Source: Planctomycetaceae bacterium (GTDB taxonomy: Bacteria; Planctomycetota; Planctomycetia; Planctomycetales; Planctomycetaceae). Taken from it: a stretch of DNA of 64,000 nt. The position numbers were made by a program, and so were the translations under genes. Below are positions 2,076 through 36,202 of the stretch, piece by piece. The first letter of the stretch is position 1; every line of letters starts with the position of its first letter. Location: the NCBI GenBank assembly GCA_037445755.1, contig JBBIJW010000023.1:22351-86350 (forward strand). The letters are read 5' to 3'. Under the pieces are notes generated by a model. That model searched no databases and was not told the origin of the DNA. It saw only the letters and a program-made list of their open reading frames with translations.

Positions 2076-2317
2076 CGGCCCAGCCCCCGGTCCTCTCCCA
2101 CCTCACCCACGTGGGGGGGCCTCCGTCTCTGTCGCTACTGGAAAGCTCCGCTCCCCCCCACACCGATCACCGACGGTCGGCTGCCCACGGTTGGGAGGTC
2201 CACCCGTCAACATCCCCGGTCTCCGCTCAGCAACCCGGCCTTGGGCTGCGACGCGGTTCTCACTACGATTCCCGTCGGAAGGGGGGTGACTCTCCCGCCC
2301 GCTCGAAAGGACCCTCG

Positions 2318-3442
2318 ATGGGCGTTCCGATCTCCCAGATGTGGACCGTCGCGACGTATGTGCTGGGGCAGAAGCTCCGCGGCCGGCGACGGTATCCCCT
2401 CGTGCTGATGCTCGAACCGCTGTTCCGCTGCAATCTGGCGTGCGCCGGCTGCGGCAAGATTCAGTACCCGGTGGAAATCCTCCGCCGACAGCTCACTCCG
2501 GAGGAATGCTTCCGGGCCGTCGACGAATGCGGCGCCCCCGTCGTCTCCATCCCCGGCGGCGAGCCGCTGCTGCATCCTCAGATTCACGAGATCGTCGCCG
2601 GCATCGTGGCGCGGAAGAAGTACGTCTATCTGTGCACCAACGCCCTGCTGCTGGAGAAGCATCTCGACCGCTTCACACCATCGAAGTATTTGTCGTTCTC
2701 GATCCATCTCGATGGTCCGCGGGAGGAGCACGACGAGGCCGTCTGCCGCGAGGGGACCTTTGACATTGCCCTCCGCGCCATCCAGGCGGCGCTGGCGCGG
2801 GGGTTCCGCGTGACCACCAACACCACGCTCTTCTCCACCGCCGACGCTGACCGGATGCGGGAGTTCTTCGACCGGCTGATGGAACTGGGGGTGGAAGGGA
2901 TGATGCTCTCCCCCGGTTACCCCTATGAAAAAGCCCCGGATCAGGAGCACTTCCTCCACCGCCGCCAGACGACGCGGCTGTTCCAGCGGCTCCTGCATCG
3001 GGCCAAACGCTCCTGGCGGTTCAACCAGTCGCCGCTGTTCCTCGAATTCCTCCGGGGGAACTACGACCTGGAATGCACGCCGTGGGGCAATCCGACGTAC
3101 AACGTCTTCGGCTGGCAGAAACCGTGCTACCTCATTCAGGAGGGCTACGCGAACACGTTTCAGGAGTTGATGACGACGACGGACTGGAACGGTTACGGCC
3201 GGGCCAGCGGCAACCCCAAATGTCAGGACTGCATGGTCCACTGTGGTTACGAACCGACTGCGGTGGACCACGCCTTCGGCACGCTCCGGGGGCTGCTGGC
3301 GGCCGCCCGGGTGGCGCTGTTCGGGTTGCGGCCCTTGATCGGCAGCGGAACGGAACCGCTCCCTGCCAGCCCCCCCGCCCGCGGTCCGCTGGTGCAACTG
3401 GAAGTTCCCGTGCTGGCCGCCGACGGCAACGGGCGGGAATAA
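2318..3442 (+). CDS. hpnH: radical SAM adenosyl-hopene transferase (hopanoid side-chain biosynthesis)
   Basis: ATG 2318 ([11 protein letters not shown]). Radical-SAM cluster motif CNLACAGC is present. The C-terminal Cys-rich region ([19 protein letters not shown] ... [13 protein letters not shown]) resembles HpnH. Confidence 0.8.
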
Positions 3443-3647
3443 CGCGCCGTCGGTGGCGATGCGGCGGGACGAGAGGCAGGCAGCTACTTTTCTCCACCGC
3501 CCCCCCAGGGGGCCAGCACCCGCGGCTCTCCAGCCGTCCGCACATGACACCGCCCCCGTGCTTCGCCATGATCCCGAGGCGGCCGTTCCGCGGAAGGACA
3601 GACTTCACCCCTCACCACGCGGCCGCAGCGCCGTTCAGGAGATTGTC

Positions 3648-4685
3648 ATGGCCTGGGAAAAGGAATTGGACGTGGGACTGAGGGCGGTGCGGGCGGCAGC
3701 TCAAGTGTGCCGCTCCGTGCAGCGGTCCATCACCCCGGAGACGCTCGCCAAGCAGGATAAAAGCCCCGTCACCATCGCCGACTTCGCCAGCCAGGCGATC
3801 GTCTGCCGGGCGCTGGCGGAGTCCTTTCCGCAGGACGCCGTGATTGCGGAGGAGGAGGCGTCCGCTCTCCTGGCTCCGGAAAACGAGACGTTCGTGGAGC
3901 GCATGCTCGCCGAACTGCGGGCGACGGGCGTGGCGGCCGTTCGGGAGGAAGTCGCGGCGTGGATCGACCACGGACGGCACACCCCGCACCCGCGGCGGTT
4001 CTGGACGCTCGACCCGATCGACGGTACCAAGGGCTTTTTGCGCGGAGAACAGTATGCGATCTCGCTGGCGTTGATTGTCGAAGGGCGGATCGAGGTGGCG
4101 GTGTTGGGCTGTCCCAACCTGCCGGCCGCTGGCGCGGACAACCATCCACCCGGGACCGTCTTCACCGCCGTGCGAGGGGGCGGGGCCCAGGTGCGGCCGC
4201 TCGATGACGTCCGAGCACCGCCTCGACCGGTCCACACCAGCCCCACGCGGAATCCGGCACAGGCCCGGCTGTGTGAATCAGTGGAGTCGGGGCATAGCGC
4301 GCATGGGGCTTCGGCCGAGATTGCCGCGCGACTGGGCCTGCAGCATCCGCCCGTCCGTCTGGACAGTCAGGCCAAGTACGCCGTCGTCGCCCGCGGCGAG
4401 GCCGACATCTATCTGCGGCTGCCGACGAAGAAGGACTACCGCGAAAAGATCTGGGACCATGCCGGCGGCGTGCTGGTGGTGGAGGAGGCGGGAGGACGCG
4501 TGACCGACGTGGAGGGGCGGTTGCTCGACTTCACCTGCGGCGCGGAACTGGCGCGGAACCGCGGCGTGGTGGCAACGAACGGCGGACTGCACGAACCCGT
4601 ACTTGCCGCAGTGGCGAGCGTCCTCGGCAGGGGGGGAACGTCCCCCGCCAGAGAATCAGAGGAGAAGTCCGCTTTGAACGCTTGA
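3648..4685 (+). CDS. 3'(2'),5'-bisphosphate nucleotidase, HAL2/CysQ type (inositol monophosphatase superfamily)
   Basis: ATG 3648 (MAWEKELDVGLRAV). Motifs KSPVTIADFASQ, WTLDPIDGTKGF and WDHAGG are characteristic of the family. Confidence 0.8.
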   Translation: MAWEKELDVGLRAVRAAAQVCRSVQRSITPETLAKQDKSPVTIADFASQAIVCRALAESFPQDAVIAEEEASALLAPENETFVERMLAELRATGVAAVREEVAAWIDHGRHTPHPRRFWTLDPIDGTKGFLRGEQYAISLALIVEGRIEVAVLGCPNLPAAGADNHPPGTVFTAVRGGGAQVRPLDDVRAPPRPVHTSPTRNPAQARLCESVESGHSAHGASAEIAARLGLQHPPVRLDSQAKYAVVARGEADIYLRLPTKKDYREKIWDHAGGVLVVEEAGGRVTDVEGRLLDFTCGAELARNRGVVATNGGLHEPVLAAVASVLGRGGTSPARESEEKSALNA

Positions 4686-4998
4686 TCGCCCCCCGGCACA
4701 ACCGTTACGGCAGGTACCCCAGGCACGCTCCGCCGAGTCGAGGGGAGTCCCTTCGCCGCTCTGGGGTCACCGCCCGCCAGCGGCGCGATCGGAGCAATCG
4801 TCATCGCAGGTCCGGTCATCACGGTGTCTCATTCGCCGCCGTTGCTTTTCGGCAACAGATGTGGACCGGTGTGCTAGGGTTGCGGGTGTGGAGGCCGCTT
4901 CCTGAGCGGGAGGCCCTCCGGCCTGACAGGCGCGGGACACGCCGCAACAGGCAGCCCCCTGGGAGGCGCTCCGGGTTTCCCTTCCCCGGTTCACCGCC

Positions 4999-7299
4999 AT
5001 GCTCGATGACCAGCGTTTACGGACCGATCTGCTGGCGTTGGTGATCCTGGCGGCCGCGGCGTTTATCGCCCTGGCATTGTTCAGTTATCACCCGGCCGAC
5101 CCCCCCTCGACGCTAGTCTACCCCGCCGCGGACACGGTGCGGAATCTCTGTGGCCCGTTCGGGGCGCGGCTCGCTCACGCGCTCCAGACCTGGCTGGGAT
5201 GCGGCGCGTGGGTCGTCGTGGCGGCCCTGATCGCCTTCGATCTACGGCTGTTCTCCCGTCACCCGCACCGCAAGACAGGCATCCGAATCCTCGGTTGGAT
5301 GCTGATCGTCCTGTCGGCCTGCCTGTCGTGGCAGCTCCTCGCGCCCCACGCGGGAGAGGGACCGGCTGTCGGCAGTGGCGGTTACGTCGGCGCCTGGGGG
5401 ATGAAGTTGCTGGCGAACCAGCTCTCCTGGGCCGGGACGTTGATCGTCATCGCCACGCTCGCCGTGGCGGGACTGCTCCTCAGCCAGGAGTGGTTCCTGT
5501 TCCGACTTGTGGGGACTGTGACTGTGCTCCCAGTGCGGATCGCTGTCGGGATCGGGCGCGCGGTGCGGCGACGGTGCCGTACCGACACCGTCTCGCTGCG
5601 GGACGATCAGGCGTGTGCGACGTGGGACGAGGCGATGCGATCGCCCGTCGCGGCTGAGAGATCGGACGCGCCGCCGCTCGCGGAGGATTCGCCCCTCCCC
5701 GCTCTCGAATTCAAGGTGAACCCGCCTGTTCACGCCCGGGGGGGAGCAGAGAACCAGCCCGACCCGGCCGGACTGTACCAGCTTGGGACCCACCCCCAGT
5801 ACGAACTGCCGACGCTCGATCTGCTGGAAGAGAGCGAGGAATTCCCGTTTGAACTGCTGGCCCGCAAGGCTCAGGCGACGGCCGCCACCCTGGAGAAGAC
5901 TTTCCAGGAATTCGGCCTCCATGTGCGCGTCACGGAGATCGACACCGGGCCGGTGGTGACGCAGTTTGAACTGGACCTGGAACCGGGATTGCGCGTCTCC
6001 AAGGTGGCTGCCCTGCAGGATGACCTGGCGATCGCCCTGCGCGTGCCCGCCGTGCGCGTGGTGTCTCCCATTCCGGGGAAGAACACCGTCGGCGTGGAAG
6101 TGCCCAACGAACGGCGGGTAATGGTGCGGCTGAAGGAATTGCTGCAAGCAAGCGCCCCCCAGGCGGAGTCGCTGCGAATCCCGATCTACCTCGGCAAGGA
6201 CGTCAGCGGGCGTCCGCTGACGGTCGACCTGACCAAAATGCCGCACCTCCTGATCGCGGGTCGCACCGGGACCGGCAAGAGCGTCTGCCTCAACGCGCTG
6301 ATCTCCTCGATCCTGATGACCCGCTCGCCCGACGATGTGCGGATGCTGATGATCGATCCCAAGATGGTCGAACTCAGCCCCTACAAACGCATTCCACACC
6401 TGATGCACCCCGTCATCACCGATATGAAAAAGGCCGAGGCGGTGCTGGCCTGGGCGGTGGACAAGATGGAGGAGCGATATGACCTGCTCGCGCAAGTGGG
6501 CGTGCGGCACCTCGACAGCTACAACGCCCTGGGCAAGGAGCGGGTGCTGGACAAGCTGGGCGTGGAACCGGACAGCGATGAGGCGGAGGCGATCCCCGAG
6601 CGAATGCCCTACATCGTGATCATCGCCGATGAGATGGCCGACTTGATGATGACCTCCGGCAAGGACGTGGAAGGGCATATCATCCGCCTGGCGCAGAAGT
6701 CGCGGGCCGTCGGCATCCACCTGGTGCTGGCCACGCAGAAGCCGACCGTGGACGTGATCACCGGCCTCATCAAGTCGAATCTGCCGGCGCGGATCGCCTT
6801 CCAGGTCGCCAGCCGCACCGACAGCCGCGTGGTGCTCGACGAGTGCGGGGCCGAGCGGCTGCTGGGCCACGGCGATCTGTTATACCTCGCGCCGGGGACC
6901 AGCACGCTCACCCGGGCCCAAGGGACCTTCGTGTCCGATGAGGAGCTGCATCGTCTGCTGGCCTTCTTTGAGCAGTATGAGCCGCAGTACGAAGACGAGA
7001 TCGAACGGGCCACGCGGGCGGCCCTGCGCACCAGCCAATCCGGCGGTGAGGAGTCGCGGCCTCAGGACGACCTCTATCCGCAGGCCGTGGAGGTGGTGAT
7101 CCGGGAGGGACGCGGCAGCGTCTCCCTGCTGCAACGGGCGCTGGGCATCGGCTACGGCCGCGCCGCCCGCATGATCGACTGGATGGCCGAGGACGGCGTG
7201 GTGGGCGAGTACAATGGTTCCAAGTGCCGCGAGGTCGTCTGTACGTTGGAAGACTGGCAACGGCGGCAGGGGGAGATGGTGGAGGAAACGGCGGTCTGA
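4999..7299 (+). CDS. ftsK: DNA translocase FtsK/SpoIIIE
   Basis: N-terminal TM helices, Walker A IAGRTGTGKSV, a RecA-like motor domain, and a C-terminal gamma winged-helix (SVSLLQRALGIGYGRAARMIDWM). Confidence 0.95.
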   Translation: MLDDQRLRTDLLALVILAAAAFIALALFSYHPADPPSTLVYPAADTVRNLCGPFGARLAHALQTWLGCGAWVVVAALIAFDLRLFSRHPHRKTGIRILGWMLIVLSACLSWQLLAPHAGEGPAVGSGGYVGAWGMKLLANQLSWAGTLIVIATLAVAGLLLSQEWFLFRLVGTVTVLPVRIAVGIGRAVRRRCRTDTVSLRDDQACATWDEAMRSPVAAERSDAPPLAEDSPLPALEFKVNPPVHARGGAENQPDPAGLYQLGTHPQYELPTLDLLEESEEFPFELLARKAQATAATLEKTFQEFGLHVRVTEIDTGPVVTQFELDLEPGLRVSKVAALQDDLAIALRVPAVRVVSPIPGKNTVGVEVPNERRVMVRLKELLQASAPQAESLRIPIYLGKDVSGRPLTVDLTKMPHLLIAGRTGTGKSVCLNALISSILMTRSPDDVRMLMIDPKMVELSPYKRIPHLMHPVITDMKKAEAVLAWAVDKMEERYDLLAQVGVRHLDSYNALGKERVLDKLGVEPDSDEAEAIPERMPYIVIIADEMADLMMTSGKDVEGHIIRLAQKSRAVGIHLVLATQKPTVDVITGLIKSNLPARIAFQVASRTDSRVVLDECGAERLLGHGDLLYLAPGTSTLTRAQGTFVSDEELHRLLAFFEQYEPQYEDEIERATRAALRTSQSGGEESRPQDDLYPQAVEVVIREGRGSVSLLQRALGIGYGRAARMIDWMAEDGVVGEYNGSKCREVVCTLEDWQRRQGEMVEETAV

Positions 7300-7570
7300 T
7301 GGCGTCCCCGGCACCGGGGCCGAATTGCCGGCGGCGGTCGGTCGGCGGGGGAGCCGCCGCCGCCGGTTGCCTCAGCGTGGCTCAAAGGGCGCGGCGAACG
7401 CCGACAACGGCGCCGGAGCCGTTACCACCGGTGCAACCGGACGCTTCGCCGGAGGGATGCCAAGATTCGGCAGAGGGAGTATTTGCGAAGACAGTTCGCA
7501 ACCCACCCTGGAACTACGGTTTTGGCGGTCCGGCTGATCTTCCTCGCTGCTCCGTGCCGGATGCCCCGTC

Positions 7571-11458: not shown

Positions 11459-12640
11459 TCACTTCGCGAGCGAGAACAGGTTGGACAGGTTCTTCGGAGC
11501 CGCGGAGGGGAAGTACCCCGTGGCACCTTCCGCCGGCGGAGCCACCGCGTCACCGGCCGGCGGGGTGGCCGGGGCGCAGCAGTTCGGCGCACAGCAGTTC
11601 TGCGGGCAGCAGCAGGAGTTGCCGCAGCAACGACGAGCCCGGCTCCGGCGAACCTTGCAGCAATAACCGCTGCCGTTGTCACAGCAGTTCGTGCCGCAGC
11701 AGGTCACGCCGCACGCATTCCGGGTCCGGCAGCAGCGCCGGCCGCGACGGCAGTGCGACGGGCCGCAGCAGGGATCGGTGCAGCAGTTCTGCGGGCAGCA
11801 GCAGGCGTTCTCGCCGCAGCAGCCGCAGCACGCATACCGATGACCGCGGCAGCGACGGGAGCGGCGGCAGCACGCGCCGCTATTGCCGTCACAGCAGTTG
11901 GCATCGCAGCAGGTCACGCCGCACGCCTTCCGGGTCCGGCAGCAGCGCCGGCCGCGACGGCAGTGCGACGGGCCGCAGCAGGGATCGGTGCAGCCGTTCT
12001 GCGGGCAGCAGCAGGCGTTCTCGCCGCAGCAACCACAACCGGCATACCGGCAGCAGCGCCGGGCACGACGGCCACGGACGCAGCAGCAACCGCTGTCACA
12101 GCAGTTGGCGTCGCAGCAGGTCACGCCGCAGGCGTTCCGGCCCCGGCAGCGGCGGCCGCGACCGGAGTGCGTCGGGCAGCAGCAGGGATCGACGCAGCAG
12201 TTCTGCGGGCAGCAGCAGGCGTTCTCGCCGCAGCAACCGGCGTAACGGCAGCAGCGCCGGGCGCGACGGCCGCGGACGCAGCAGCTACCGCTGTCACAGC
12301 AGTTGGCATCGCAGCAGGTGACATTGCAGCCGTGCCGACCGCGGCAGCGGCGTCCGCCGTGCGACGGGCAGCCGCAGGGATCGACGCAGCAGTTCTGCGG
12401 GCAGCAGCAGGCCTGCGGGCAGGCGCAGCAATCGGGTTTCACACAACGGCAATGCCGGGCGCGGCGGCCGGTGTGGCAACAACCCCCGACGGGGGCGCAA
12501 CACGTTGACGGGGCACAGCAGGACGAAGCGTAGTCACAACACTTCGACCCGCCGCAAGGGTAGCAACACCCGGCGTCAGCCTCGAGGCTGAGCAGGCCGA
12601 GCAGCGCCACCACGGCGGCACAGACTCGAATCGACTTCAT
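11459..12640 (-). CDS. secreted hyper-Cys/Arg-rich tandem-repeat protein, unknown function
   Basis: ATG 12640 is preceded by SD GGAAGGAGA (12650-12658). Signal peptide MKSIRVCAAVVALLGLLSLEADA. About 104 Cys by hand count in CC/CCC clusters. The preferred Cys codon TGC on this strand would be the rare Ala codon GCA on the other. Confidence 0.8.
   Translation of the reverse strand: MKSIRVCAAVVALLGLLSLEADAGCCYPCGGSKCCDYASSCCAPSTCCAPVGGCCHTGRRARHCRCVKPDCCACPQACCCPQNCCVDPCGCPSHGGRRCRGRHGCNVTCCDANCCDSGSCCVRGRRARRCCRYAGCCGENACCCPQNCCVDPCCCPTHSGRGRRCRGRNACGVTCCDANCCDSGCCCVRGRRARRCCRYAGCGCCGENACCCPQNGCTDPCCGPSHCRRGRRCCRTRKACGVTCCDANCCDGNSGACCRRSRRCRGHRYACCGCCGENACCCPQNCCTDPCCGPSHCRRGRRCCRTRNACGVTCCGTNCCDNGSGYCCKVRRSRARRCCGNSCCCPQNCCAPNCCAPATPPAGDAVAPPAEGATGYFPSAAPKNLSNLFSLAK
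11680..12490. repeat. four in-frame tandem repeats (periods 210, 207, 198 bp) inside the Cys-rich CDS
   Basis: Units begin with cacagcagtt at 11680, 11890, 12097 and 12295. Units 1 and 2 are nearly identical over about 130 bp. Confidence 0.9.
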
Positions 12641-13309
12641 TTTACAGCGTCTCCTTCCTGTGGGACTGGTGAGGCCGTCCTCACCGCTGGGTCGAGCGGT
12701 TCTGACATCGCGACGAAACTGGCCCTCTCCTTGTTGTGCCATTCCGCCGTATGCTCAGGTGACGGCAACGGACATACACATCGGTGAGCGTTGAGTTTCT
12801 CCTCCTTGAAGAACCTCATCGTCGCCGCGGGGCACATCCGTCTCCGACGTTGTCCCCCGCTGGGAGCGGCTGTGTCCTCGGCAACGTAGGACGCGACCTG
12901 GACTGAGTTCGAGACCGGGGGACTCGCTTGAACTATCGGACCGACCCCGCCAGCCCCTTGAGCCTCTCAAGTCGTTATCTGAAAAGCGGTTGCCGCGTCC
13001 GGACGTGACGCCTTTAGCGACTGTTCCGGTCAGTTAAGACCGCGAAACTGTCCGGGCTTCCATCCACTCGTTCGACACCGAATCCCTCCCAGTCTGGGGA
13101 AGCTGGCTCGAACGCGGATCACTTCAACGATTGTGGCAATTGTGGCGATCGGCACTCCTGTGCCTGAGAGGGGCACCAGGCCGCCCCTGAGGAACAGAAC
13201 GGATCTCCCGATCGTGCCTCCGCGCCAAGGTCTGGCACACCAGCACGATCCGTCCTAAGCTGACGTCGATGCCCCTTCGACCGTTCCTGACCGATGGGCC
13301 TCGCCGCTC

Positions 13310-31307: not shown

Positions 31308-33347
31308 TCAGCGAGGAGTGCGCGTCTCCCCCTCCGGGTCGGGGAACCAGATCGACTTCAGCGGCCAGGCCTGCACGCGCGCGGTCGTGCCGGTTCCATT
31401 CGTAGACACCGAAACGCCCCGGCTGTCGGGAGCGGGAAAAATACAGTCGGTGAGCACCATGGCGCCATCAGCGGCGAAGACCTCAACGGAGGAGGCATCG
31501 ACAAACACGTGCAGGCGGATGCGACCGTCGCTGGCGGCCAGCGGCCCCGCATGGCGGCCGGCAAAACGAGGATGAAATGCCGACTCACCGGAACGACTCC
31601 GATCGACGAACACCTCCCGTGTTCGCGCATCGTAACCGATCACGGTCCGCTCCCCCTCGCCGACGCGGACGTTCAGCCCCACCTCCGTGGCATCCCCCAG
31701 ATCGAACTCGGCGATGATCTCCAGCCGGTCTCCTTCGATTCCAGCATCGGCCAGCGGTGTCTCGCCGGGAGGCAAAGAAAGGGTTGCCATCCGGACCGGT
31801 GTGCCGCGGAGCGATTGAAGCTCCCGGATCGGGGTCTGCACCAACCGCAGGCCCTCCGCGGTCCGACGCAAGCTCAACGAGCGAGGGATCGACATGGCAC
31901 TCCGCCAGGGGTCTGTCGGATGCAGGCAGGTTTCCCAGTTGTTCATCCACCCGATCCAGATGCGGCGGCCGTCCGTCGGGGGGATGTCGGACCAGGACAC
32001 GGGAGCGTAGAAGTCCCGCCCGTAGTCGACCCAGCGGACCGGCGGCGGCTGCTCATCGGGAACGAACCGCTCGCCGTCAAACCGGCCGACGAAATACTCT
32101 CCTCCCGATCCGCCCGCCACTGCGCCGGACCCCATGTCCACTTCCAACACCCACCTCGTTTCCCCGGGCTCGTTCTCGATCGGCAGCTCGAACAGGTCCG
32201 GGCATTCCCAATTGGGTTTTTCCGCCGCTCCGGCGGGACCGAAATCGCTCAGGTGGGTCCACTGCTTGAGGTCGGGGGAGGAGTAGAACCGCACCCGTTT
32301 TTGAGGTGCCAGGGAAACGACCATCACCCAGCGGCCGGTCGGAGCGTGCCAGAACACCTTCGGATCGCGGAACTCCGCCTCCCCGAGATCCAGGACCGGG
32401 TTGCCGGCGTACTTTGTCCAGCTCCGCCCGCGATCGGTGCTGTACGCCAGGTCCTGCGTCTGGCGGCCGTGTCCGTGCCCCGTGTACACGGCGACGAGCG
32501 GCGGTTCGTTCTCGCGGCCGAAACCGCTCGTGTTCTGGTGGTCGACGACGCAGCAGCCGGAAAAGATCATCACCCCATACTCTTCGTGGAGGGCGATCGG
32601 CAGATGTTTCCAGTGCACCAGGTCGCCGCTGACGGCATGTCCCCAGCTCATGTGTCCCCAGGCGTTGCCGTGTGGGTTGTGCTGGTAGAACAGGTGATAC
32701 TCCCCGTCGTGGAACACGAGGCCGTTGGGGTCGTTCATCCAGTTGAGCGGGGGAGAAAAGTGGAACTGGGGGCGATAGCGTTCCCGGTAGTACTCGGCGG
32801 AGCGTTGATACTCGTCCAGCCGCCACGTCCCCGTCCCCGCCCGCGGAACGTCGGTCTGCACAATGTGGTCGACGAGGACGTGTCCCCAGCCCCCCGTGGC
32901 CCGATCGAAGATGCGCAGGCGCGCCTCCCGGCCGATCAGATCGGCCACGTCCCACGTGTGCCAGAGAAGCTGTTCCGCATCGCGGCCAGTAGCAGTGCGG
33001 ACGGCCGCCCCGTCGATGACCAGTTCCATCCCGACTTGTCCCGCGCTGCGCCCCCCGCCGATCAGAAACGCCAGGGATTTCCGGGTGATCCGAAACGCCG
33101 GCGACGTCAGACTGCCGGTGGAGGCGTCTCCCCCGTGGTAGGAGTTGACGAGGCTCCTCCCGCGGAAGCCGCTGACCGGCATCTGGTCCGGCAACGCACC
33201 AGAGACCGGACCACGGCCGAAGGCGGTGCCTTCCACCTGCCACTCGCCGTAACCCTCCCCCTCGAAGTCGGCTAGGAGGACGTCCTCGGCGGTCAGCCGA
33301 TCCACCCACAGGCACGGCACCAGCCACAGCAAGAGCAGTCGTTTCAT
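31308..33347 (-). CDS. glycoside hydrolase family 32 (beta-fructosidase/levanase-like) with an N-terminal jelly-roll domain
   Basis: Signal peptide MKRLLLLWLVPCLW. GH32 motifs WMNDPNG, FRDPKVFW and WECPDLF are present. Confidence 0.9.
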   Translation of the reverse strand: MKRLLLLWLVPCLWVDRLTAEDVLLADFEGEGYGEWQVEGTAFGRGPVSGALPDQMPVSGFRGRSLVNSYHGGDASTGSLTSPAFRITRKSLAFLIGGGRSAGQVGMELVIDGAAVRTATGRDAEQLLWHTWDVADLIGREARLRIFDRATGGWGHVLVDHIVQTDVPRAGTGTWRLDEYQRSAEYYRERYRPQFHFSPPLNWMNDPNGLVFHDGEYHLFYQHNPHGNAWGHMSWGHAVSGDLVHWKHLPIALHEEYGVMIFSGCCVVDHQNTSGFGRENEPPLVAVYTGHGHGRQTQDLAYSTDRGRSWTKYAGNPVLDLGEAEFRDPKVFWHAPTGRWVMVVSLAPQKRVRFYSSPDLKQWTHLSDFGPAGAAEKPNWECPDLFELPIENEPGETRWVLEVDMGSGAVAGGSGGEYFVGRFDGERFVPDEQPPPVRWVDYGRDFYAPVSWSDIPPTDGRRIWIGWMNNWETCLHPTDPWRSAMSIPRSLSLRRTAEGLRLVQTPIRELQSLRGTPVRMATLSLPPGETPLADAGIEGDRLEIIAEFDLGDATEVGLNVRVGEGERTVIGYDARTREVFVDRSRSGESAFHPRFAGRHAGPLAASDGRIRLHVFVDASSVEVFAADGAMVLTDCIFPAPDSRGVSVSTNGTGTTARVQAWPLKSIWFPDPEGETRTPR

Positions 33348-33565
33348 GGCGGGAACAGACTCCGCAGGAGAGCAAGGGCGTCCGCCGGCGGGACGCAGGA
33401 CGAGAGGGGTGTTTCACGATCGATCGGACCGGCAGGCCAGTCTCGCACCGGGCGGAAGATCGGTTGGCCCTGAACGCGTCTCTGCGACTCCGGGCCTCCC
33501 GTCTCGGCTGGGATGGTACGGCCGGGGAGCGTCGCTGGCCAGACAGCGGTGGCCTGTGACAGTGG

Positions 33566-34080
33566 CGTAGGGTGAGCTGCGCCCACCGCGATATCACGGC
33601 TTCGCCGTTGTTCCGGTCAGGTTGTTTGGAGGCTGGGGGCCAGCGTGAACGACGTTGATGGAATCCCGACTTGGCGACAAGAGTTCCGACGATACGTTCA
33701 AGGCGAGTTCCGTCGGCGGTGAGTTGCCCAACCGGAACAACGGCGAAGCCGTGACCGCGATGTGAATCGGTCTTGCCAACTGGCTTCAAGACTACCGAAA
33801 TGCTGGGCGCAGCCCACCCCGCGGGATGACTGCGAAGGAGTGAGTCTATGGATGATGGCACTGGCATAGCCAGTGCCGTTCGCGGATCAGAGCTGCCGTC
33901 CCCACTCGCACTGGCATCGCCAGTGGCGCACTCCCTGTTCGCAGCCGGGTTCATAATTCATTGGCCACTGCCACCCGTCCGTCCAGTGCGTTCCCAAGCC
34001 GGAGCTTGGGAATGAGAGCGCAAAACCCGTCCCTCCCACGTCTCCTCGATGGCGGCTGGTGGGCAAAGCCCACCCTACGG
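33566..34080. repeat. intergenic cluster of REP-like palindromic units
   Basis: CGTAGGGTG(A/G)GC..GCCCACC units lie at 33566-33587 (+ orientation) and 34058-34080 (- orientation), with a partial copy at 33802-33825. Hairpins: GGCACTGGC-ATA-GCCAGTGCC (33857-33877), CACTGGC-ATC-GCCAGTG (33909-33925) and TTCCCAAGC-CGGA-GCTTGGGAA (33991-34012). Confidence 0.8.
33594..33754. repeat. MITE-like element bounded by perfect 24-bp inverted repeats
   Basis: tcacggcttcgccgttgttccggt (33594-33617) is the exact reverse complement of accggaacaacggcgaagccgtga (33731-33754). The 113-bp core contains a repeated gagttccg. Confidence 0.6.
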
Positions 34081-34168
34081 CACTGACCTACTGCACTGGA
34101 ACGGGCAAAAACCCGCCGCTTGTCCGTGTCGGGTTGAACCGCTTGTTGGGCCTTGGTCCTGCAATGTG

Positions 34169-34537
34169 TCAACCAAAAAAGGATGCGACTAGAGCACCAC
34201 CAACGAATGCGGCTGCTTTGCCAACCCAACCCCATTTGCGCTGGTTTTCCGCCTGGTTCACCGCGAAGACGACAATTGACATCGCAATGTTTGCTACGGC
34301 ATCACCATGGTTTTCAAAGAATGCTGTCACTCGGGTTTGGTCTTCGACATTCCAACCCGCCTGCTCCATCGCAAAGAAGCAGGCACCATAGTATGCTTTG
34401 TTGCATGCATCCGCATCGCCCATAACAGTGGGGTTATCAAGTAAGTAATTTGCGAGGCTTTGAGCTGCAACGCGGGCGACAGGGTTCATCATGGCAATTG
34501 CCGCACGAATCTGGTCTTCGCTTTCTAGGATGTGCAT
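34169..34537 (-). CDS. hypothetical tail-anchored small protein (low-GC islet, gene 2)
   Basis: 122 aa, with a soluble N-domain and a hydrophobic C-terminus, WGWVGKAAAFVGGALVASFFG. A/T-rich codon usage is unlike the neighbouring genes. It starts 14 nt after the stop of gene 1. Confidence 0.6.
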   Translation of the reverse strand: MHILESEDQIRAAIAMMNPVARVAAQSLANYLLDNPTVMGDADACNKAYYGACFFAMEQAGWNVEDQTRVTAFFENHGDAVANIAMSIVVFAVNQAENQRKWGWVGKAAAFVGGALVASFFG

Positions 34538-34551
34538 GTCATGTACCTTGA

Positions 34552-34908
34552 TCAGGAGCGAAAGAAATTATTCACTTTCCGAATGTTCGCCAGTTTTCTC
34601 TTTTGTTTTGGTCGGAGGAGGAGTCGAACGCTTCTGGGCATTCTAGACTCCAGTCGATTTATGCAAGTGCCGACGGCCGGTACGGCAGTGGCCCATGCGG
34701 CGAGACCAGCGATGATGAGTGGAACGCCCGAAACAAAAGGCAATACCCAACCCACGAAGCCAACGGCGACCAAAATCGCACCCAATGCAATTAGTGCAAC
34801 TCGCGATATGACGCCACGACTGGCACAAGGAACTGTGAACAGCGGTGCGAACTCGTCGATTGTGCGCGAGTCATTGATATGACGATCTGAGTCGTGGTCA
34901 ACCATCAT
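34552..34908 (-). CDS. hypothetical small two-TM membrane protein, PGPGW-like hairpin (low-GC islet, gene 1)
   Basis: 118 aa. The TM hairpin is VALIALGAILVAVGFVGWVLPFVSGVPLIIAGLAAWATAV and the C-tail is basic. Codon usage is atypical. Confidence 0.6.
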   Translation of the reverse strand: MMVDHDSDRHINDSRTIDEFAPLFTVPCASRGVISRVALIALGAILVAVGFVGWVLPFVSGVPLIIAGLAAWATAVPAVGTCINRLESRMPRSVRLLLRPKQKRKLANIRKVNNFFRS

Positions 34909-35130
34909 TTAGGAAGACCAGTTAGGTCATGCTCCCGCATGGCTTCCTGTTGCTACACCCCGCGATTTCCGGAGGTGCGTGACGTACGAGAGCCGCAACG
35001 TGGGGCAGGTCACGTGCTGGTTCAGTTTCGCCTCCGGAGCGGCGACGGTCAAGATGCCGGGTGCCGGGAGCTTCCGCGGCGCGGGTCGAACCCCGCCATC
35101 CCGCCGGGCTTGTGAGCGGAACGATCCCGA

Positions 35131-35177
35131 GGCGGATCGCGCTCAAGTGGCGGATCGCGCTCAAACGGATCGGTGGC
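35131..35177. repeat. 18-bp tandem direct repeat (about 2.6 copies)
   Basis: ggcggatcgcgctcaa occurs at 35131-35146 and 35149-35164, followed by a partial ggatcggtggc. It lies in the leader upstream of the islet genes. Confidence 0.85.
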
Positions 35178-35230
35178 AGAGTGGCCGCGCTCATCGGGGA
35201 GGTCCCGCAAGACACTGAGCAGTGAGTGAT

Positions 35231-35259
35231 ATTGCAACAGTCGCCGGGTGCTTTGTCAA
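35231..35259 (-). promoter_or_regulatory. near-consensus sigma70-type promoter facing the islet genes
   Basis: The minus strand reads TTGACA, 17 nt, TGCAAT. It is about 320 nt upstream of ATG 34908 and about 55 nt downstream of the SDR stop. Confidence 0.35.
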
Positions 35260-35314
35260 GCGTGTGCTTCACGAAACCGGGTGCCGAGTGCGACGGGGGC
35301 TTCGGCGGCAGGGT

Positions 35315-36202
35315 TCAGATCGTCATCGCCGAGAAACCCCCGTCCACAATCATGTTCGCGCCGGTCACAAAGCTCCCCGCGCGGTGGGAGGCCAGCAGCA
35401 GCACGGCCCCGATGAGTTCGTGAGGTTCGCCGAAACGGTTCATCGGCGTGTGGCGGAGGATGCTCTCCACGCGGTCCGGAGTGAGGATTCTCCGGTTCTG
35501 CTCGGCAGGGAAGAAGCCGGGCGAAAGGGCGTTGACGCGGATGCCGTAGGGAGCCCATTCGCGGGCGAGGTTCTGTGTGAGATTGATCACGCCCGCCTTG
35601 GAGACGCTGTACGTGAAGACCCGCGACAGGGGAGTGATGCCAGACATGGAGGCGAAATTGATGATCGAGCCTTTGACCTTAGCCGCGATCATCGCCTGAC
35701 CGAACACCTGGCAGGTGAGGCGCACACTCCGCAGGTTGACGTTGAGAATCCGGTCCCATTCCTCGTCGCTGATGTCGAGAAAGGGGGTGGAGGCGTTGAC
35801 GCCGGCGGCGTTGATGAGGAGATCGCAGGTCCGCCCTTCGGCGCGGAGGCGATCCCGCAGTCCCTCCAGGTCCTCGCGGCGCGTGGCATCAATCGGGTGG
35901 AAGGCTGCCCGGCCGCCGAGTCGTTCAATCAGTTGGGTGCGCTGCCGGCCGTGTTCCAGATGCAGTCCGGCGATTTCGACGCTTGCACCGGCCTGGGCGA
36001 GGGCCACCGCCACGGCGCCGCCGAGAACCCCTTCCCCTCCAATGACGACGGCCGTCCGGCCGGTGAGGTCGAACAGGTCCACCAGGAACGGAGCGGAGGC
36101 CGGCAGGCTGTGCGCGGGGGGGACCGCTGCCGCAGACTCTTCGCCGGTGCGGAGCGCCACCGGCGGAGGACGATCGAGGGGAAAGGGGGGGCGGTCGATC
36201 AT
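35315..36202 (-). CDS. SDR family oxidoreductase
   Basis: Rossmann motif [14 protein letters not shown] and catalytic YSVSKAG (YxxxK). There is an N-terminal extension of about 45 aa. The ATG overlaps the parA-like stop (ATGA). Confidence 0.85.

Follow-up and report, generated by a model that had tools for sequence, protein, structure and literature searches.

In a 64-kb stretch of the genome of a Planctomycetaceae bacterium (assembly GCA_037445755.1, contig JBBIJW010000023.1, positions 22,351 to 86,350 of the forward strand; this whole stretch of 64,000 nucleotides is referred to below as the window), an islet of low GC content was found between a GH32 gene and an SDR gene. The islet carries two small open reading frames (ORFs), ORF A and ORF B, encoding a predicted transmembrane (TM) hairpin protein and a helical protein of an unannotated family, respectively. 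It is tentatively interpreted as an imported, self-contained two-gene membrane module acting as a conflict-system effector, by a mechanism that we infer below. The foreign composition of the islet, the recurrence of the gene pair, the defence and mobility genes in its neighbourhoods and the lack of a close relative of ORF B together fit a horizontally acquired cassette of the conflict-system type. The initial annotation of this DNA had already proposed a cassette, and the recurrence of the pair supports this, since the same two genes were found in unrelated metagenome contigs, often beside defence or mobility genes.

The GC content of positions 34171-34930 is 0.513, which is the lowest value of any 760-bp stretch of the window (mean 0.666, standard deviation (sd) 0.024; the second-lowest stretch has a GC content of 0.605). 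At the third codon positions (GC3), ORF A and ORF B have values of 0.52 and 0.50, i.e. about 0.51, compared with 0.81 in the flanking GH32 and SDR genes and 0.806 ± 0.036 (minimum 0.72) in the reference set of 35 likely genes of the window. This gap of approximately 8 sd cannot be explained by amino-acid composition. The tetranucleotide distance of the islet (z 3.9) is the second highest in the window. The composition of the islet is therefore foreign to this genome, and atypical in the way expected of a horizontally acquired islet. These calculations agree with the low-GC islet of the initial annotation, and its two minus-strand genes of 118 and 122 aa, spaced by 14 nt, were likewise recovered.

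Further copies of the pair were sought in metagenomes by a scan made with 18 sequences, the broad 40-sequence ORF B alignment being too divergent for this purpose. An ORF A homologue is located directly upstream of an ORF B homologue in 9 of the 12 informative loci, the window included (the others are L001, L002/L003, L085, L086, L087, L092, L099 and L101/L102), and in all nine the genes are spaced by -14 to +19 nt. So tight a spacing argues that ORF A and ORF B constitute a conserved and probably translationally coupled unit. The contigs carrying the pair range from 36 to 72% GC. The pair is poorer in GC than its contig in L001 (0.515 vs 0.587), L002 (0.48 vs 0.553), L086 (0.55 vs 0.653), L087 (0.542 vs 0.708) and L092 (0.60 vs 0.657); the islet of L086 resembles that of the window, with approximately 1.8 kb at 0.55-0.58 in a contig of about 0.68. 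In L089 the GC content of ORF B (0.41) lies above that of its host (0.36), and in L099 (0.72) and L101 (0.52) the pair equals its host. Such a pattern fits repeated transfer among hosts of differing GC content, with partial amelioration.

Recognised defence genes are present within about 6 kb of the pair in 4 of the 8 contexts of at least 5 kb (a small sample with no matched background), and mobility genes, i.e. a transposase or primase, in 3 of the 8. In L092, the pair is immediately followed by an Azaca cluster (ZacC, E=0; ZacB, E 3e-182; DUF6361) and preceded by a SoFic-like gene (E 4.5e-37), an ADP-ribosylglycohydrolase gene and a TY-Chap3 gene. The latter group (positions 1438-5163 of L092, with a SoFic-like Fic gene) is an observation in its own right, as it may represent a separate toxin/antitoxin-type module residing in the same defence island. 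Other neighbours are a DISARM DrmD/DrmA-like helicase fragment (E 7e-173) and a DDE transposase in L086, bSEFIR (E 9e-64) and an IS110 transposase in L101, HEPN_AbiU2 in L089, and a Prim-Pol/PriCT/AAA_25 primase-helicase together with an HTH_17 gene in L001. Searches of 72,556 plasmids, 50,697 phage genomes and 2.9 million viral contigs gave no relatives of the family. The hosts of the module are for the most part uncultured bacteria from the environment, planctomycetes among them.

ORF A has an acidic N-terminus followed by two hydrophobic helices (approximately residues 35-55 and 62-82 by hydropathy), with a Pro/Gly-rich turn, 'GWVLPFVSGVP', between them, and a strongly basic tail (12 K/R within residues 85-117) that ends in a conserved FF motif. 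Its AlphaFold2 (AF2) model, of low confidence (predicted local distance difference test (pLDDT) 66), contains helices 33-55 and 62-89 and additional tail helices. Matches to Pfam are weak: DUF454 is hit with 18 bits (E 0.003, model positions 1-42 of 115 aligned) and PGPGW (PF09656) with 15.3 bits (E 0.015), compared with gathering thresholds of 35.1 and 23.3 bits, respectively. In the ORF A family, 7 of 8 members match DUF454 (best E 6e-6) and 3 of 8 match PGPGW (best E 6e-4), all under the curated cut-offs, and a profile made from ORF A homologues retrieves the PF09656 proteins P0011 and P0012. These matches point to a distant relationship, of the hairpin alone, with PGPGW and with the first hairpin of DUF454/YbaN. 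The PGPGW-like TM hairpin with a basic tail, as originally predicted for ORF A, is consistent with both the hydropathy and these sub-threshold matches.

The homologues of ORF A that lie directly upstream of ORF B homologues are 89-133 aa long and share 24-38% identity with it. Invariant positions of the family are G43, G50, W54, L56, P57, G61 and P63, and its members have in common the turn 'GWxLPFxPGxPL' (also given as 'GWxLPFxxGxP') and the C-terminal FF motif. Judging from these conserved upstream homologues, ORF A is a genuine gene. A sequence search with ORF A gave zero matches, itself included; the exact protein is absent from a collection of 15 billion proteins because the gene caller chose an antisense ORF, as seen in the Logan contig L004, which has the same sequence. 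In L092 the ORF A homologue (5596-5997) was left uncalled by automatic annotation. The hairpin partner was thus missed or mis-stranded in at least two assemblies, which makes the pairing invisible in standard annotation and in protein databases.

For ORF B, 7 homologues of 59-66% identity, all of 122-125 aa, were found in a collection of 5.8 billion proteins, and a profile search of 1.84 billion representatives yielded a family of 46 representatives, of which 32 have E<1e-10; almost all are 116-130 aa long. Three elements make up the family signature: a helical domain at the N-terminus (motifs 'AxxxMxPxARxAA' and 'HGxxVxxVAxSI'), a patch of basic residues and a C-terminal 'WGWxGKAAAxxxGxxxGSxFG' helix. 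The AF2 model of ORF B is all-helical (pLDDT 81.7): helices 7-15, 19-34, 36-40 and 42-59 form a compact bundle, residues 67-101 a single long helix, and the protein finishes with a terminal helix (109-121), before which lie R100 and K101. The tail sequence 'GKAAAFVGGALVASFFG' is glycine-zipper-like, and this motif occurs in 22 of 40 family members. The soluble two-Cys N-domain of the initial annotation stands as a helical N-domain, but two cysteines are not a family feature, since Cys53 is only semi-conserved and Cys46 is not conserved in the family alignments. Similarly, the proposed C-terminal membrane anchor corresponds to the terminal helix, which is only moderately hydrophobic (Kyte-Doolittle (KD19) maximum 1.4, with Lys107 within the segment) and modelled with low confidence (pLDDT 47-65).

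No significant match to ORF B was obtained in Pfam, NCBIfam, PADLOC or PHROGs, and Pfam and PHROGs scans of 40 members of its family gave nothing consistent. In the same four libraries ORF A also stayed below threshold. Its sole match in PADLOC-DB v2 is HamC2 at E 0.016 (ORF A has none), and a match to phrog_13007 (E 0.0014) was treated as chance, as it was found in 1 of 40 family members. No relative was detected among PDB sequences with the ORF B profile (best E 0.043). Foldseek searches with the model likewise gave no fold relative, the best E values being 0.88 in PDB, for globin-like noise, and 2 in BFVD. The ORF B family is unannotated and rare, it is absent from every library searched, and the ORF B of the window is its founding member here. 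The earlier impression that neither protein belongs to a recognised family accordingly holds for ORF B, while ORF A is DUF454/PGPGW-like at sub-threshold level only. A role of ORF B as an anti-sigma factor (a helical domain with one TM helix) was considered and rejected, as no sigma factor gene was found in the neighbourhoods examined and a zf-HC2 match did not turn up in the Pfam scans.

Two side observations concern the ORF B family. Three large proteins, P0041 (1455 aa), P0052 (1378 aa) and P0054 (706 aa), contain 5-8 repeated partial matches to positions ~26-87 of the ORF B profile, which could be either a repeat-domain relative of the ORF B N-domain or low-complexity noise. In L088 (5200-5694), an ORF B homologue without an upstream hairpin gene is missing ~40 residues at the start of the domain and reads into unrelated sequence past the Gly-rich helix; it is probably a decayed copy.

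The history of the locus was examined by comparison with related genomes. The best matches of the GH32 protein are in metagenome-assembled genomes of Planctomycetaceae (57-64% identity), and 80 species-representative GH32 loci (at most 64% identity, too distant for synteny) contained no adjacent SDR, ORF A or ORF B gene. Contigs of close relatives, L104 and L105 (~84% DNA identity), were reached via the 90% cluster of the SDR protein. As revealed by BLASTn, they are collinear with the window from 43342 down to 35312 (genes for LeuRS, a sulfatase, ParA and the SDR protein), and past the SDR gene they continue with radical-SAM/DUF3463, inositol-phosphatase and FtsK genes, which in the window are found at 2232-7322 on the opposite strand. 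This gene order indicates that positions 2232-35312 of the window (~33 kb) are inverted or rearranged relative to the close relatives. The right breakpoint (~35312) lies at most 400 bp from the islet. Downstream of the SDR gene, L104/L105 lack any equivalent of the 406-bp spacer that separates ORF A from the SDR stop codon in the window, and no repeat shared by the two breakpoints was found. The initial annotation had treated GH32-SDR as a syntenic junction, but the gene that comes after SDR in the relatives is the radical-SAM gene, which is here 33 kb away on the other strand, and gene order argues that the junction is not ancestral. A functional link of the islet to the SDR gene was rejected, as their adjacency was produced by a lineage-specific rearrangement.

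All 7 flanking genes tested (GH32, YdjM-like, radical-SAM, inositol phosphatase, ParA, SDR and sulfatase) have relatives of at least 90% identity in other assemblies. The 90% cluster of ORF B is a singleton, and its nearest homologue shares 66% identity. The horizontal acquisition proposed at the outset is upheld by the foreign composition of the islet but not by signatures of mobility at the site, since there is no tRNA gene in the window, no mobility gene adjoins the islet and no direct repeats bracket it.

The surroundings of the islet differ from their first description. Repeats had been claimed on both sides: on the GH32 side palindromes are indeed present, as a cluster of three GGTGGGC..GCCCACC copies and two GCACTGGCAT.GCCAGTG copies, whereas the SDR side contains only a short tandem of ~18 nt at ~35122-35164. 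Within the cluster, a nested element resembling a miniature inverted-repeat transposable element (MITE) has outer arms at 33565-33587 and 33800-33822 and perfect inner arms of 24 nt at 33594-33617 and 33731-33754. Neither the window nor the relatives' contigs contain a second copy of this element, and it belongs to no Rfam family. The palindromes recur nowhere else in the 64 kb and are absent from the relatives' contigs, so that their designation as a genome-wide family of repetitive extragenic palindromes (REP) is unsupported. Nor is there support for the repeats as boundaries of a cassette, because the non-coding flanks of the islet do not accompany the pair in other loci. The strong promoter attributed to the islet was not recovered either, a consensus scan giving 0 sigma-70 promoter-like sites in 33300-35400. 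The candidate listed in Table 1 is unremarkable, and approximately one chance match to a site of this kind is expected in the window (a rough estimate). No convincing terminator was reported by the scan of the islet region, and an Rfam scan of 33300-35400 gave nothing relevant.

Table 1 Features of the low-GC islet, its surroundings and related loci (positions are those of the window unless a contig is named)
Feature	Position	Strand	Basis or remark
ORF A, 118 aa	34552..34908	-	two-helix TM hairpin, divergent DUF454/PGPGW-like; sequence, hydropathy, homologues, AF2
ORF B, 122 aa	34169..34537	-	acidic all-helical N-domain of ~100 aa, 'RKWGW' interface motif, C-terminal Gly/Ala-rich helix
ORF A-ORF B spacer, 14 nt	34538..34551	-	ORF A stop to ORF B start
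Low-GC islet	34150..34920	none	GC, GC3, tetranucleotides; extent is essentially the two coding sequences
Antisense ORF called instead of ORF A	34532-34882; L004 326-667	+ in window	automatic gene calling
Palindromic repeat cluster	33560..34085		between ORF B and GH32; local, repeat search
Nested palindromic MITE-like element, ~260 bp	33565-33822		DNA fold z -6.4
ORF A-SDR stop spacer, 406 bp, GC-rich	34909..35314		right breakpoint inside; BLASTn
Candidate promoter TTGACA-17-TGCAAT	35259-35231	-	~316 nt upstream of ORF A; unreported by consensus scan
Left synteny breakpoint	2076..2232		between acetyl-CoA synthetase stop and radical-SAM upstream region
Third small membrane gene, 100-115 aa	L086 5356-5658; L097 462-809; L098 2-400		weak DUF2975 or Phage_holin_3_6-like matches
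L099 pair context	L099 1309-3624	same-strand run	two zinc-ribbon membrane proteins, pair, then epimerase, glycosyltransferase, radical-SAM
Cys-rich repeat protein, 427 aa	11459-12742	-	signal-peptide-like N-terminus; tandem array 11669-12412

If the islet is indeed an imported effector module, ORF A would be a small hairpin protein of the inner membrane whose basic tail lies in the cytoplasm, and ORF B, made from the same transcript, an acidic helical cytoplasmic domain tethered by its C-terminal glycine-zipper-like helix. The two proteins would form an inner-membrane complex in which the basic tail of ORF A docks on the acidic domain of ORF B. Once triggered, the hairpin and the glycine-zipper helices might assemble into oligomers that permeabilise or depolarise the inner membrane, and in this way the complex would act as an effector of the abortive-infection or toxin/immunity type. 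The charges of the two proteins are complementary: of 40 ORF B family members, 88% carry a net negative charge on the soluble domain (mean -4.3), and the ORF A tail is net positive in all 9 partners (+3 to +11). This fits docking, and the positive-inside rule would explain the charge of the tail equally well. That the pair serves in conflict of some kind, the plain toxin/immunity variant included, is judged to be slightly on the probable side. A narrower proposal, doubtful at present, is that the hairpin and the tail-anchored helical protein are an undescribed minimal two-gene anti-phage (abortive-infection) system, in which the acidic cytoplasmic domain would sense infection and free the glycine-zipper/hairpin assembly, with depolarisation of the inner membrane as the consequence.

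Several points weigh against an imported conflict effector. The complex of ORF A and ORF B and its pore mechanism are put forward purely by inference, as is a toxin/immunity or abortive-infection function of the pair. Membrane insertion of the ORF B terminal helix is plausible, yet uncertain in view of its weak hydrophobicity and low pLDDT, and neither protein reached the curated cut-offs of any defence, toxin, holin or phage family. Three informative loci have no hairpin partner for the ORF B homologue: in L089-L091 and L095 it is absent, and in L097/L098 a DUF2975-like small membrane gene is found upstream of ORF B instead. The same DUF2975-like gene precedes the ORF A/ORF B pair in L086, and replacement of the hairpin by this third gene in L097/L098 hints that partners may be exchanged in modular fashion. 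Co-divergence of ORF A and ORF B was not significant (Mantel r 0.20, p 0.12). The association with defence genes comes from the small set of contexts described above; no defence or mobility gene adjoins the islet in the window, the neighbours in L002 and L099 are ordinary sugar epimerase or polysaccharide genes, and the pair of L099, host-like in GC content, looks native. The evidence for absence of the module from close relatives is indirect, as the synteny of L104 and L105 ends at the SDR stop codon with the GH32 side uncovered.

A realistic, if less probable, alternative is that the pair forms a benign accessory membrane complex with a role in the envelope or membrane homeostasis (e.g. an inner-membrane-tethered scaffold or regulator), native in some lineages and occasionally transferred, whose closeness to defence genes reflects only its landing in variable regions. 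In L099, the pair has the GC content of its host and follows, on the same strand, two genes for membrane proteins with zinc-ribbon motifs; this locus may be a larger operon to which the module is native. It agrees with this explanation, as do the epimerase neighbour in L002/L003, the wide occurrence of DUF454/PGPGW proteins for which no conflict role has been reported, and the failure of both proteins to match any model of the defence library. It accounts less readily for the sparse and patchy distribution of the family (46 representatives in 1.84 billion proteins), the foreign composition of the pair in most hosts, the defence and mobility genes in 4 and 3 of the 8 contexts, respectively, and a module undetected in close relatives that share all of the flanking genes. 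A toxin/immunity or toxin-antitoxin addiction cassette that lacks phage sensing, in which one membrane protein (the toxic part being either the hairpin of ORF A or the glycine-zipper helix of ORF B) is neutralised by the other and the cassette stabilises its own DNA, is rather improbable. The small, translationally coupled and stoichiometric genes would suit it, and so would the hairpin with its basic tail, the glycine-zipper-like tail found in over half of the ORF B members examined (22/40), the association of the pair with mobile elements, and the lone or differently partnered ORF B homologues, which resemble the partner swapping of toxin/immunity genes. However, there is no similarity to any known toxin-antitoxin or immunity family, the plasmids searched, in which addiction modules are common, contain no relative, and no secretion system or bacteriocin gene is present near any locus examined.

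Phage lysis genes and assembly errors were also taken into account. The topology of ORF A resembles that of a class II holin (two TM helices, cytoplasmic termini and a charged C-terminal tail) and the different upstream membrane gene of L097 has a sub-threshold Phage_holin_3_6 match (E 0.004), but a remnant of a lysis cassette, i.e. a holin/antiholin or holin-like pair, is very improbable given that relatives are lacking in the phage genomes and viral contigs searched as well as in PHROGs and BFVD structures, and that no endolysin, spanin or other phage gene stands beside the pair in any locus. The holin-like option of the initial annotation was dropped on the same grounds, together with the lack of any plasmid occurrence. 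Hardly any weight is given to an assembly artefact, in which a chimeric join in a metagenome-assembled contig would have introduced a low-GC segment foreign to the genome. The relatives differ in gene order exactly at the point of the islet, and the independent Logan contig L004 covers only 33725-35207 of the window, short of both GH32 and SDR. Nevertheless, L004 matches the window at 100% identity and runs across both changes between low and high GC content, the breakpoints have no repeat in common that could mislead an assembler, and a real rearrangement is unremarkable between genomes of only ~84% DNA identity. Chimeric assembly at the islet is unlikely, and even with a wrong join the gene pair would be real and conserved elsewhere.

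Another feature of the window is the gene for a protein with the extremely Cys-rich repeat 'CCCPQNCC...DANCCD...', present in 3-4 copies with a DNA period of ~198-210 nt. This gene (11459-12742) is the strongest tetranucleotide outlier of the window (z 9.0).

Should the interpretation of the islet as an imported conflict effector be correct, a module of ~240 codons would extend the membrane-targeting conflict systems by a protein family and an architecture that are both new, and it would offer a first way into the function of the DUF454/PGPGW hairpin superfamily, which is large and uncharacterised. The defence repertoires of planctomycetes and other uncultured hosts are poorly known. Irrespective of function, a mis-stranded or missed ORF A hides the pairing from view, and the islet marks a synteny breakpoint. 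A benign accessory membrane complex would be of routine interest.

Comparison with known systems places the two proteins as follows. DUF454 (PF04304, the family of E. coli YbaN) and PGPGW comprise small inner-membrane proteins. The first TM hairpin of these families can be aligned with ORF A and its eight partners, which share its tight Pro/Gly-rich turn 'LPxxPGxP'. However, the full DUF454 model spans four hydrophobic segments, of which ORF A covers model positions 1-42 only, and ORF A differs from both families in its long basic tail, terminal FF motif and obligate downstream partner. No functional study of PGPGW, DUF454 or YbaN was found in the full-text literature, and with no published function for these families the resemblance leaves the role of the module unexplained; as far as found, the pairing of ORF B with a DUF454/PGPGW-like hairpin is also undescribed there. 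Class II holins and pinholins are two-TM hairpins with cytoplasmic termini and a highly charged C-terminal tail. ORF A shares the hairpin and the charged tail, but the pair has neither the phage context nor the lysin or viral homologues of such proteins. Glycine-zipper membrane peptides and toxins carry GxxxGxxxG helices, which the ORF B tail resembles. Its motif is, however, short and compositionally simple, it has no Gly-zipper Pfam match, and it is joined to a cytoplasmic domain of 100 aa that those peptides lack.

The membrane effectors of abortive infection and defence are two-TM or SLATT-like proteins and include the small TM effectors of CBASS, Thoeris and type III CRISPR systems. No sequence match to them was obtained for the pair (SLATT_1, E 2.6; PADLOC not significant), which, unlike them, has no fused or co-encoded signal-generating enzyme or sensor domain, and the N-domain of ORF B has no recognisable fold relative. 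What ORF A and ORF B share with these effectors is their small size, their predicted insertion into the inner membrane and their occurrence in defence islands, the neighbourhoods of the pair holding Azaca, DISARM-type, bSEFIR, SoFic and HEPN_AbiU2 genes. In kind, the pair resembles many small membrane modules of defence islands.

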